Source: an uncultured bacterium
GTDB lineage: Bacteria > Armatimonadota > Hebobacteria > CAYNSX01
Length of the DNA: 64,000 nucleotides
NCBI GenBank assembly: GCA_964400165.1
Contig: CAYNSX010000008.1
Location: forward strand, 91-64,090
Direction of reading: 5' to 3'
Part shown: piece by piece, positions 9,621 through 11,538 of the stretch
Position numbering within the stretch: the stretch's first letter is position 1
How the letters are laid out: each line of letters opens with the position of its first letter
Position numbers and translations under genes: made by a program
The notes under the pieces: model-generated
What the model was told of the DNA's origin: nothing
Databases searched by the model: none
Seen by the model: only the letters and a program-made list of their open reading frames with translations

Positions 9621-10390
9621 ACGACGCATTGAGTAACCTGTTGCAGCGAATCGACGAGAAGCAAGAGCGGGTGGCCGCGCGGCGACCGCTGCCGCCGGAA
9701 GTGGTCGCCAACTTGCGTGAGGTGCTGGGCGTCGAATGGACCTACGAGAGCAACGCGATCGAGGGGAACTCGCTGACGCTCGCCGAGACCCGGGTGGTGG
9801 TGCTCGACGGGTTGACCATCGGGGGGAAGTCCGTGCGCGAGCACCTCGAGGCGACGAACCACTGGGCGGCGCTGCAGCACCTCGAGACGATGACGCAAGC
9901 CGGGCCGTTGAGTGAAGACGATGTGCTCACGCTCCACGGATTGATCCTGCGGGGCCTCGATGACCGGAACGCCGGGCGCTATCGCCGCGTGCAAGTGGAG
10001 ATCTCCGGCAGCCGGCACCTGCCGCCGCCGCCCGGCGCGGTTCCCGGGCGGATGCGGGAATTGCTGCAGTGGGCGAACTCGGAAGCAGCCGAGGCCCGGC
10101 ATCCCGTCCTGCGAGCGGCGGAGTTCCACCAGCGGTTAGTGGACATCCACCCCTTCGTTGATGGCAACGGGCGCACCGCTCGCCTGGCGCTGAATCTGAT
10201 CTTGCTGCGGGCGGGCTATGTCCCCGCCATCATTCCGACGGCGCGGCGCGCCGAGTACATCGCTTCCATCGAGGCGTGGCGGCGCAAGGAGGCCGAACCG
10301 TTCGAGCGACTCGTCGCCGAGGAAGAGGAGCGGACCCTCGACCGGTACTTGCGGGCGCTGTCGGGCGGGCAGTTTGGAGACCGCGAATGA
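9617..10390 (+). CDS. Fic family protein, class II (N-terminal inhibitory motif SNAIEGN; active-site HPFVDGNGRTAR), probable AMPylase
   Basis: Canonical Fic motif HxFx(D/E)GNGRxxR and the auto-inhibitory [S/T]xxxE[G/N] helix in the same polypeptide. Confidence 0.85.
   Translation: MNDALSNLLQRIDEKQERVAARRPLPPEVVANLREVLGVEWTYESNAIEGNSLTLAETRVVVLDGLTIGGKSVREHLEATNHWAALQHLETMTQAGPLSEDDVLTLHGLILRGLDDRNAGRYRRVQVEISGSRHLPPPPGAVPGRMRELLQWANSEAAEARHPVLRAAEFHQRLVDIHPFVDGNGRTARLALNLILLRAGYVPAIIPTARRAEYIASIEAWRRKEAEPFERLVAEEEERTLDRYLRALSGGQFGDRE
10362..10390 (+). repeat. 29-bp direct repeat copy 2 (cgggcgggcagtttggagaccgcgaatga) at the Fic 3' end and SIR2 start
   Basis: See copy 1. Confidence 0.75.
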
Positions 10391-11538
10391 GTGAGCCCTT
10401 GAACGCTGAAAACAAGAAACGATTCAAGGTTAAAGAATATCTGCCATGGGACAGTCGCGTGATTCTGTTCCTGGGTTCGGGGGCATCAGCGCCATTCGGT
10501 TACCCCCTCCTGCGCGACTGGAAAAGAGTACTTGGTGAACTTAGACCAGAGCATGAGTCTCGAGTCAGCGGTTTAAGGGCACGCGTGGATAATGAAGACC
10601 GGTTTGATATTGAGACTCTCCTGGGTGAACTCACAGCCCAGCTCAAACGACTGAATTGGCTCATCGATGACAATGGCCTTGAGTCGCTGGGGCTGATTAG
10701 CAAGGACCTCCCGAAGGGATGGGAGCCTGCTAGACAACAGATTCAAGGCCTGATCCAACATATTCAGAAACAGATCCACGCGACCTACAAGAGCAACCCG
10801 GATGAAGGCGAGATTGGCAGGTCAAGACTTCGTCTACTCTGGGAGCCGGTTCTCTATCAAATCGCCGGAGCGTATAAGGCCTATCCTTTGGTTGTGACAA
10901 CGAACTGGGACGGATTATTTGAGGACTACCTTAAGGAGTCGCGTCTTGTCCCCGTAACTGGGATTGATCCACAGACTCAACTATTCCACGACTACCAGTA
11001 TGATCGCGAACTGCAAGAGAACGAAGTGCTTGTGTTGCATCTTCACGGACATGCGCATTGGTTTTCCGACAAGCACGAAAGGATTGCTTACCAGCCAATC
11101 CCCACTCCCGAAGCGCTGACTCCCGTGATCTACTACCCAACCCCCGATAAGTCCGAAGCCAGACATCCTGAGCTTCTGAAGATTGGCGATGCATTCGAGC
11201 GCGCTCTCCGCGGCGCCCGACTTGTTGTCGTGGTCGGCTATTCAGCCAGAGATGATCACATTGTTGACGCTTTCAGACGCGTCGCAAAGTCGAGGGGAGA
11301 GAACACCCTGCGAGTAGCAGTGCTGGATAGGTGCCCCGGCGTGGCAGCGGCGCGGCTCGGGAATAATAGGGAAATCGAAGCATCGCCGTATCGTACGAAC
11401 CTCGGCGGTTACGACTTCTCTGAAGCATACAGAAACCTAGAAAAAGCCATCTCATGGGAGCGCACAGACGGCCACATGTTTCAAATGGGGCCGGATTGTC
11501 CATTTAGACCGTCTGACGGAACTTCTGATGCCGCGTGA
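10387..11538 (+). CDS. SIR2-family (SIR2_2-like) protein, putative NAD+-consuming effector. Markedly AT-richer than its neighbours
   Basis: Rossmann GAGxS-like [13 protein letters not shown] and HLHGH motifs matching the defense-type SIR2 TTNYD/KLHG signatures. Codon composition visibly A/T-richer than the flanks (not computed). Confidence 0.8.

Follow-up and report, generated by a model that had tools for sequence, protein, structure and literature searches.

A low-GC SIR2-family gene next to a Fic gene inside the pyrimidine operon of an uncultured Armatimonadota bacterium

A compositionally foreign SIR2 gene lies between Fic and carB

We analyzed a 64,000-nucleotide (nt) stretch of contig CAYNSX010000008.1 (the window; 67.0% GC overall) from an uncultured bacterium of the Armatimonadota, and focused on a gene for a stand-alone SIR2_2-type protein of 383 amino acids located inside a pyrimidine biosynthesis operon. 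The gene occupies positions 10387-11538 of the forward strand, with its ATG at 10387 and a TGA stop at 11536-11538, and its last 11 nt overlap carB, which encodes the large subunit of carbamoyl-phosphate synthase (11528-14788, forward strand; assigned from its translation and from Pfam matches of its orthologue in a related contig, L006). Immediately upstream is a class II Fic gene of 257 codons (9617-10390, forward strand; Pfam Fic, E 4.7e-25), and upstream of Fic is ORF172, an open reading frame (ORF) of no known family (9102-9620, forward strand). ORF172 and carB form the left and right borders of a junction whose content varies among relatives.

A first-pass annotation of this DNA had described the SIR2 ORF as richer in A and T than all of its neighbors, and our measurements over 10387-11538 agree for overall GC, for GC at third codon positions (GC3) and for GC at four-fold-degenerate sites. 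The ORF has a GC content of 0.531 versus 0.677±0.027 in 44 other genes of the window (z -5.5), a GC3 of 0.557 versus 0.870±0.030 (z -10.6), and a codon adaptation index (CAI; other window genes as reference) of 0.307 versus 0.689±0.055 (z -7.0). GC at four-fold-degenerate sites is 0.567, compared to 0.932±0.027 in 45 other window genes (z -13.6). Because the background gene list was picked by a GC3-based rule and is hence biased, we added two annotation-free tests. Among sliding windows of 1152 nt, the SIR2 ORF is the lowest-GC stretch of the entire 64 kb (0.531, with the next at 0.595; z -5.4), and among sliding windows of 1150 nt it is farthest from the window-average tetranucleotide profile (z 6.4). 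The measures that the first-pass annotation had proposed as checks (sliding-window GC, GC3, CAI and k-mer signature) thus all single out this ORF, and its GC and GC3 lie outside the distribution of the other genes in the window.

The neighboring genes are host-like: ORF172 has a GC3 of 0.87 and a four-fold GC of 0.922, with carA (0.91) and carB (0.91) similar, and the Fic gene, already judged host-like by eye, has a GC3 of 0.86 and a four-fold GC of 0.913 (z -0.7). The host-like composition of Fic indicates that the history of SIR2 is separate from that of Fic. In 30-nt windows, GC drops at ~10391 and recovers at 11528-11531, so that the steps fall just after the SIR2 start codon and at the carB start. 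The foreign segment (10391-11527, no strand assigned; ~53% GC), delimited by this profile and consistent with sliding GC, tetranucleotide and four-fold GC data, is therefore gene-sized and has no non-coding flanks. Codon-position GC in the ORF is 0.62/0.41/0.56, and the Lawrence-Ochman regressions predict 59.6/41.0/57.5 for an unameliorated gene of a 53% GC genome versus the 62/41/56 found; by this estimate, the gene has undergone no detectable amelioration and no faster rise of GC3.

The SIR2 protein resembles defense SIR2 NADases

The sole Pfam domain in the 383-residue protein is SIR2_2 (PF13289; residues 168-322, E 3.5e-12, 47 bits where the cut-off is 24.5). Sixteen SIR2-type models in PADLOC also match, with the Aga_SIR2 models covering only the SIR2 core (residues 168-308), and a scan of NCBIfam found no family for the protein. 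Alignment located the NAD-binding loop G30-S-G-A-S34 (10474-10488), the T171-T-N173-W-D175 motif with the catalytic Asn (10897-10911) and the H220-G221 motif with the catalytic His (11044-11049), all on the forward strand, and G30, G32, A33, S34, T171, N173, D175, H220 and G221 occupy invariant or near-invariant columns in an alignment of 46 sequences (alignment A3). The only two cysteines of the protein are C316 and C371, so that the Cys4 zinc module of sirtuins is missing. The gene is an intact accessory gene for a stand-alone, defense-type SIR2 (SIR2_2) protein.

An AlphaFold2 model of the protein (predicted local distance difference test score (pLDDT) 83; predicted template modeling (TM) score 0.83) shows a single domain followed by a disordered tail (residues 360-383). 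In a Foldseek search of the Protein Data Bank (PDB) with this model, the top 25 matches were all SIR2 chains from SIR2-HerA entries (8wld, 8uae and 8suw; E 5e-11 to 1e-8, TM ~0.6), with weaker matches to CobB, KomC, SPARSA, DSR2 and ThsA. A profile built from the family alignment matched SIR2-HerA chains at E 1e-31 to 1e-22. A PDB search with the single sequence matched no solved SIR2, and returned only a spurious amylase (E 0.19). By both fold and family profile, the protein is therefore of the SIR2-HerA SIR2-subunit type. Taken together, the sequence and model comparisons suggest that it is most like a defense SIR2 NADase, a probable assignment, and for such enzymes the expected chemistry is NAD+ depletion (PMC11263360, PMC11514289, 10.1101/2021.12.14.472599).

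The protein has few close relatives. A HMMER search of 1.84 billion representative proteins yielded 340 matches at E<1e-3, mostly of 320-420 amino acids, with the best homologue besides itself at 31% identity (E 2e-14), and a word-based search of 5.8 billion proteins returned only the protein itself. The closest known relative is therefore a fragment encoded at the same locus in a related contig (L004, described below; 55% identity over 66 residues). All four of the nearest distant homologues whose gene context could be placed are stand-alone, and one of these adjoins AbiEi/AbiEii. By these comparisons, we assign the protein to the stand-alone SIR2_2 proteins as a new and highly divergent member whose nearest counterpart is the SIR2 of SIR2-HerA.

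We compared the gene with known SIR2 defense systems. SIR2-HerA (GAO_19/Nezha; PDB 8wld, 8uae, 8suw, 8j4u) provides the best fold and profile matches, and its SIR2 subunit shares with our protein a similar size (~380-415 amino acids), the GxGxS, TTN(Y/W)D and HG motifs, and the lack of a zinc module. In contrast to SIR2-HerA, the gene has no HerA (DUF87) ATPase adjoining it or among nearby genes: its neighbors are Fic and carB, and the rest are pyrR, pyrB, pyrC, carA and ORF172. It also sits in a biosynthetic operon rather than in a defense island. No HerA, TIR, prokaryotic Argonaute (pAgo) or sensor gene was found among the nearby genes, and a PADLOC scan of 10 unassigned nearby ORFs gave no matches. 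Thoeris ThsA, DSR1/DSR2, the SIR2-APAZ of SPARSA, Avs5 and KomC share the SIR2 catalytic domain and are weaker fold or profile matches. Our protein has one domain plus a disordered tail of ~25 residues. Unlike ThsA, a weak fold and profile match, it has no SLOG domain and no TIR-domain ThsB among its neighbors; unlike DSR1/DSR2 (~1000 amino acids), it lacks a C-terminal sensor of ~600 residues; unlike SPARSA and other short pAgo-associated SIR2 proteins, it has neither APAZ nor a pAgo neighbor; and unlike Avs5, it has no STAND NTPase. Judged by predicted domains and gene neighborhood, the protein falls outside SIR2-HerA, Thoeris, DSR and SPARSA, because each of these requires a partner or extra domain not present here. 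It likewise differs from canonical sirtuin deacylases (CobB/Sir2) in its zinc-module and family-model results.

The Fic neighbor is a class II Fic protein

The Fic protein carries the active-site motif HPFVDGNGRTAR and an N-terminal inhibitory motif (S45-NAI-E49-G50), both in invariant columns of an alignment (A2) of homologues with 48-56% identity. It thereby shows both signatures that we used to define class II Fic, HxFx(D/E)GNGRxxR and (S/T)xxxE(G/N). In PADLOC it matches PDC-S04 (E 2e-31) and the SoFic model (E 7e-29). The toxic AMPylase SoFic works through abortive infection (PMC12249575), and the Fic protein shares its Fic motif and class II inhibitory motif. It differs from SoFic in scoring 25.7 bits against a cut-off of 550 for the SoFic equivalog family (NCBIfam NF046030), in length (257 amino acids versus 361 in the profile), and in missing the SoFic C-terminal domain. 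We classify the SIR2 neighbor as a PDC-S04/SoFic-like class II Fic, a putative defense gene.

The junction between ORF172 and carB is polymorphic

ORF172 has only five clusters in 5.8 billion proteins (four besides its own, at 74-89% identity), and we took junction states from the contigs of these homologue clusters. In a 203-kb Joint Genome Institute (JGI) contig carrying the same operon (Ga0334722_10000034; loci L005 and L006), the site is empty and ORF172 runs straight into carB, with the boundary falling between GGGCGGGCAGTTTGGAGACCGCG and ATGCCGCGTGA. In a blastn comparison, window positions 2520-9616 aligned with L005 3419-10512 (87.6%) and 11527-14743 aligned with L005 10511-13727 (92.1%). 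A 1910-nt block comprising Fic and SIR2 (9617-11526, forward strand), cleanly inserted immediately before the carB ATG, is thus absent from L005/L006. SIR2 therefore shows the combination by which we define horizontal acquisition operationally: atypical composition, and an empty syntenic site in a close relative.

Three further contigs, L002, L003 and L004, each end inside the first inserted gene. ORF172 is followed by a Fic orthologue in L002 (83% nucleotide identity over the first 176 nt) and in L003, the most divergent relative. In L004, ORF172 is followed directly by a low-GC SIR2 homologue (GC 0.53, GC3 0.62) with no Fic upstream. The window and L004 SIR2 genes share 55% protein identity over 66 residues and 29% identity at third codon positions, and ORF172 alongside is 88% identical in DNA. 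ORF172 from the empty-site relative shares one 90% cluster with ORF172 from the Fic-bearing L002, showing that even very close genomes differ in whether a cassette is present. The same four residues, MSEP, open the SIR2 protein of the window and the Fic protein of L002; we did not treat this as evidence.

The left junctions also differ. In L003 (1002-1094), the first letters of Fic are ATGCCAAGCGAT (MPSD), similar to the ATGCCGCGTGAC (MPRD) with which carB starts. In L004 (630-655), the ATGC of the carB start is kept, followed by a 12-nt spacer and then the SIR2 ATG. These differences indicate that the point of insertion varies by a few bases around the carB ATG, the pattern expected when illegitimate joins have passed through selection.

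A metagenome scan returned a single locus, the empty site of L005. A search of a genome collection with the ORF172 alignment found no relative, and a search of the collection with carB gave, among the matches listed, hits of at most 61% identity from unrelated phyla and no further junction states. Exact look-ups of the truncated L002, L003 and L004 cassette proteins found none in the collection, and one member of the carB cluster (P0279) is a C-terminal fragment and uninformative. In L006, TniB-like and Mu-transposase C-terminal genes and an RHS-repeat gene lie at 16643-19003, ~3.4 kb downstream of carB. The window has no blastn match past L006 position 15932, so the two genomes also differ downstream of the operon.

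A duplicated ORF172 tail separates Fic from SIR2

A 28-nt repeat, which we call X, occurs at the start of both Fic and SIR2. The first copy (X1, 9593-9620, forward strand; GGGCGGGCAGTTTGGAGACCGGGAATGA) is ORF172's own 3′ end, and holds a GGAG Shine-Dalgarno sequence, the Fic ATG and the ORF172 stop. The second copy (X2, 10363-10390, forward strand) is a duplicate of this 3′ end that supplies the tail and stop of Fic together with the Shine-Dalgarno sequence (GGAG, 10376-10379) and ATG of SIR2. The copies are identical at 27 of 28 positions, and the window holds two matches versus none expected (100 shuffles). In X, GGAG lies 7 nt ahead of an ATGA stop/start overlap. As a result of the duplication, ORF172 and Fic both finish in GGQFGDRE followed by the stop, and Fic and SIR2 start from a common signal. 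The X2-encoded Fic tail, SGGQFGDRE, aligns to the variable C-terminal tail of the Fic family. X2 has CCGCGA (GCGA), as do the empty L005 and the SIR2 allele L004, and X1 has CCGGGA (GGGA), closer to the Fic allele L002. This match of variants amounts to one base and is no more than a hint.

The 3′ end of SIR2 has no repeat. It runs 11 nt into carB and uses as its stop the TGA that ends ORF172 in the empty allele. A candidate third, degenerate copy of X at this end had a local score of 15, not above that of windows within the SIR2 body or shuffles (p ~0.24), and we rejected it. The insertion moved the native carB GGAG Shine-Dalgarno sequence (in X) 1.1 kb upstream, and a weaker GGAA now precedes carB. 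We infer that carB may now depend more on coupling to SIR2.

The duplication of X could be explained by recombination between a Fic-bearing and a SIR2-bearing allele, which would have stacked the two cassettes. One crossover would be homologous, and the other would have joined at a microhomology (CGGG/GTCGGG) at the Fic 3′ end. We hold this stacking model with moderate-to-low confidence. Illegitimate recombination facilitated by homology was proposed for stacked modules of type VI secretion system (T6SS)/Rhs loci (PMC5361080). Our locus resembles stacked effector/immunity modules, or orphan modules of Rhs and contact-dependent inhibition (CDI) systems, in having a copy of the upstream gene's 3′ end before each module, no recombinase, and allele swaps among relatives. 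It differs from stacked Rhs/CDI modules in that a small orphan gene of a pyrimidine operon supplies, with its tail, the conserved handle, and in that the cargo consists of single promoterless genes, not toxin-immunity pairs, with one stacked example seen.

We found no meaningful inverted repeats at the insertion borders, no recombinase in the operon, and no att- or attC-like structure; the locus thus does not resemble an integron cassette or integrase-mediated island, having no attC-like repeat, integrase, or tRNA target at the site. Imported, more diverged flanks beside the insertion, a signature of exchange with a distant relative through homologous recombination in the flanks, were not seen. 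A search of viral contigs for a 20-nt core of X gave one match (L089), inside an unrelated 680-residue ORF without flanking similarity, which we attribute to chance.

The inserted genes are embedded in a pyrimidine operon

The genes pyrR (4945-5490), pyrB (5487-6578), pyrC (6578-7975) and carA (7975-9105), all on the forward strand and assigned by Pfam, precede ORF172. From pyrR through pyrB, pyrC, carA, ORF172, Fic and SIR2 to carB, each gene overlaps the next by 1-11 nt (1-4 nt from pyrR to carA), and L006 shows the same operon synteny. Upstream of pyrR is a PyrR-binding-site-like leader RNA (4675-4786, forward strand), which matches RF00515 over the full model length at 47.3 bits (gathering threshold 54; E 2.5e-5), with a promoter-like site (4642-4669) just before it; pyrD (Pfam) lies at 3722-4645. 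No RNA family in Rfam reached its gathering threshold in the window, and a tRNA scan of the window found none. Consensus scans of 5500-14800 found no promoter- or terminator-like sites beyond shuffle expectation, and SIR2 has no promoter-like site of its own. The tight overlaps and the lack of internal promoter or terminator signals suggest co-transcription and translational coupling, such that SIR2 would be expressed with the pyr/car genes, probably under PyrR attenuation.

ORF172 itself is host-like in GC, overlaps carA, is probably coupled in translation to both carA and carB, is restricted to this lineage, and is retained even in the empty-site relative. It has no matches in Pfam, PADLOC, NCBIfam or PHROG, and its AlphaFold2 model (pLDDT 49) is unusable.

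The gene arrangement recurs in independent assemblies

An independent JGI contig (Ga0136847_12494802; L090) is 99.8% identical to the window over 4946 nt, with zero differences between the start of ORF172 and the SIR2 stop. A Logan contig (L001) matches the window at 100% identity over 2081 nt, and each of these two contigs spans both the Fic/SIR2 and the SIR2/carB junctions. Nine of the 11 differences between the window and L090 cluster in the last 120 nt of L090 (window 12697-12802, inside carB) and are mostly A-to-G changes at third positions, which looks like strain mixing at the end of a contig rather than real divergence. The JGI gene call in L090 (2718-3671, equivalent to window 10585-11538) starts SIR2 66 codons late, giving a protein of 317 amino acids that has lost the GSGAS NAD-binding loop, and it is this shortened form that represents the cluster in the protein collection. 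The 383-residue reading is the one supported by homologues.

Origin of the SIR2 gene

Our preferred reading, to which we give a probability of about 0.7, is that a SIR2 gene of ~53% GC was horizontally acquired separately from Fic and now forms a stacked, operon-embedded, NAD+-consuming effector. SIR2 would have moved independently of Fic, and its product would be a toxic effector that consumes NAD+ (as an NADase or in ADP-ribosyl transfer), with a role in abortive-infection-type defense or in some other conflict. Such an effector would have to do without the partners found in characterized systems (HerA, SLOG, pAgo or a sensor). Of the two histories suggested by the first-pass annotation, acquisition of SIR2 alone is supported by the empty site, the separate occurrence of Fic and SIR2, and composition. 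Its proposal that the acquisition was recent has held up less well: transfer is supported, and recency is not fully secure, because synonymous sites have reached saturation between the SIR2 alleles of the window and L004.

Several observations weigh against this reading. No donor was found: besides the 66-residue L004 fragment, no protein above 31% identity was found among the 1.84 billion representatives, and searches for SIR2 in viral contigs, plasmids, phages and PHROGs returned nothing. The two SIR2 alleles at the junction have diverged to 55% protein and 29% third-position identity next to an ORF172 at 88%, with no imported diverged tract in the flanks, and a single recent import would not explain two such old alleles at one junction. 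No recombinase, att- or attC-like structure, tRNA or inverted repeat marks the site. The closest characterized relatives of the protein need a HerA partner that is absent here, and because the L002, L003 and L004 contigs stop within the first cassette, the Fic-only and SIR2-only states are documented in part. Either the junction is fed repeatedly from a low-GC pool by an unseen mechanism, or the site holds a long-standing cassette polymorphism with maintained low GC.

The second of these possibilities is the main rival to our preferred reading, and one that we consider unlikely but to be taken seriously. SIR2 would then be a long-standing, clade-confined cassette polymorphism at the ORF172-carB junction, exchanged among relatives, with its low GC kept up, for instance, because selection favors poor codons so that a toxic enzyme stays scarce in a strongly expressed operon, or else by escape from recombination-linked GC pressure. 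Two deeply diverged low-GC alleles (GC3 0.56 and 0.62) within ~3 nt of one junction, between host flanks that are 88% identical, fit this idea, as does the fact that the closest relative of the window SIR2 anywhere is the L004 fragment at the same locus; the CAI of only 0.31, derived from the window, is in line with poor codons. On the other hand, GC1 and GC2 are shifted along with GC3, so that amino-acid usage differs as well, which fits an unameliorated gene from a 53% GC genome. In addition, the composition of Fic and ORF172, which share the locus, is fully host-like, a close relative has an empty site, and the second allele is known from only 66 codons.

The remaining explanations fare worse. 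We do not favor a reading in which Fic and SIR2 form a two-gene system acquired jointly, with Fic either since ameliorated, as in the other history offered by the first-pass annotation, or drawn from a GC-rich part of the donor. The two genes adjoin, are probably translationally coupled and are both missing from the empty-site relative, and both families are used in abortive-infection defense (PMC12249575, PMC11514479). However, their four-fold GC values (0.913 for Fic, 0.567 for SIR2) are wholly different, and neighbors are not expected to ameliorate differently. They also occur separately at the 5′ position of the site: L004 has SIR2 straight after ORF172, and the presence of Fic there in the most divergent relative, L003, and in L002 (83% nucleotide identity) is consistent with a longer residence. 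With the duplication of X marking a recombination joint between the genes, joint acquisition is improbable. We regard it as very improbable that SIR2 is a housekeeping sirtuin, a CobB-like protein deacylase with merely odd codon usage. The protein does have the SIR2 superfamily fold, with CobB and Sir2 structures among the weaker Foldseek matches, but its Pfam match is to SIR2_2 and not to the sirtuin family, its two cysteines leave no Cys4 module, the gene is absent in a close relative, and antiphage SIR2 NADases are the best structural and profile matches. An assembly chimera or other artefact might be suspected of a compositionally alien segment in a metagenome-derived contig, and has a negligible chance of being correct: the junctions are identical in the JGI (99.8%) and Logan (100%) contigs, the ORF is intact over 383 codons with its catalytic motifs kept, and at each junction the genes overlap in a functional way (ATGA at the 5′ end, and at the 3′ end an 11-nt overlap to the carB-internal stop used by the empty-allele ORF172).

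If SIR2 was horizontally acquired, as we prefer, the finding as such is a textbook case of a defense-type gene with foreign composition, and the process is ordinary gene transfer at an unusual site. What is unusual is its nucleotide-precise placement inside a core biosynthetic operon rather than an island, where it borrows a duplicated ribosome binding site and displaces that of carB. Known defense hotspots are mostly intergenic and are filled by integrase-carrying mobile elements. Here, by contrast, the site is an intercistronic junction inside an operon, filled with nucleotide precision and without a mobility gene. It does resemble the hotspots of the E. coli pan-genome in being a fixed spot between conserved genes that, in related strains, holds varied defense-like cargo or none (PMC10121019).

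We also considered a more speculative extension, which we think doubtful, in which the ORF172-carB junction is a dedicated landing pad for promoterless conflict-gene cassettes, among them Fic and several SIR2 alleles, exchanged within a population with the 28-nt ORF172 tail and the carB start serving as recombination handles, coupled in translation to an essential, PyrR-attenuated operon and throttled by low GC. If this were true, cassette dose would go up as pyrimidine nucleotides run low, for instance while phage DNA is being replicated, cassettes could not be silenced without losing carB, and low GC with rare codons would act as a throttle keeping a toxic NADase scarce. In any case, a junction that holds no cassette, Fic or another SIR2 allele, with no mobility gene, could offer a small, tractable case of cassette turnover by recombination alone. 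The protein stands for a branch of stand-alone SIR2 enzymes that has hardly been sampled and that resembles the SIR2 of SIR2-HerA while lacking its partner, and characterization of the protein would test how a SIR2 NADase is turned on and off without HerA, SLOG, pAgo or a sensor domain.

Other atypical genes in the window

Two other parts of the window are also atypical in composition. Positions 15931-17196 hold a second low-GC insertion (GC 0.595, four-fold GC 0.689; z -9) that is absent from the syntenic L005 and is flanked by a prepilin-type N_methyl gene on one side and a thioredoxin-like gene on the other. It contains an ORF on the reverse strand (16051 to ~17130) whose 359-residue product has a hydrophobic, signal-like N-terminal segment and belongs to no family in Pfam, NCBIfam, PADLOC or PHROG. 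At 43133-43528 (reverse strand) is a small gene with a GC of 0.58 and a four-fold GC of 0.689 (z -9), clearly atypical values. It matches the "23S rRNA-intervening sequence protein" family (PF05635, E 5e-17) and may be another acquired gene.

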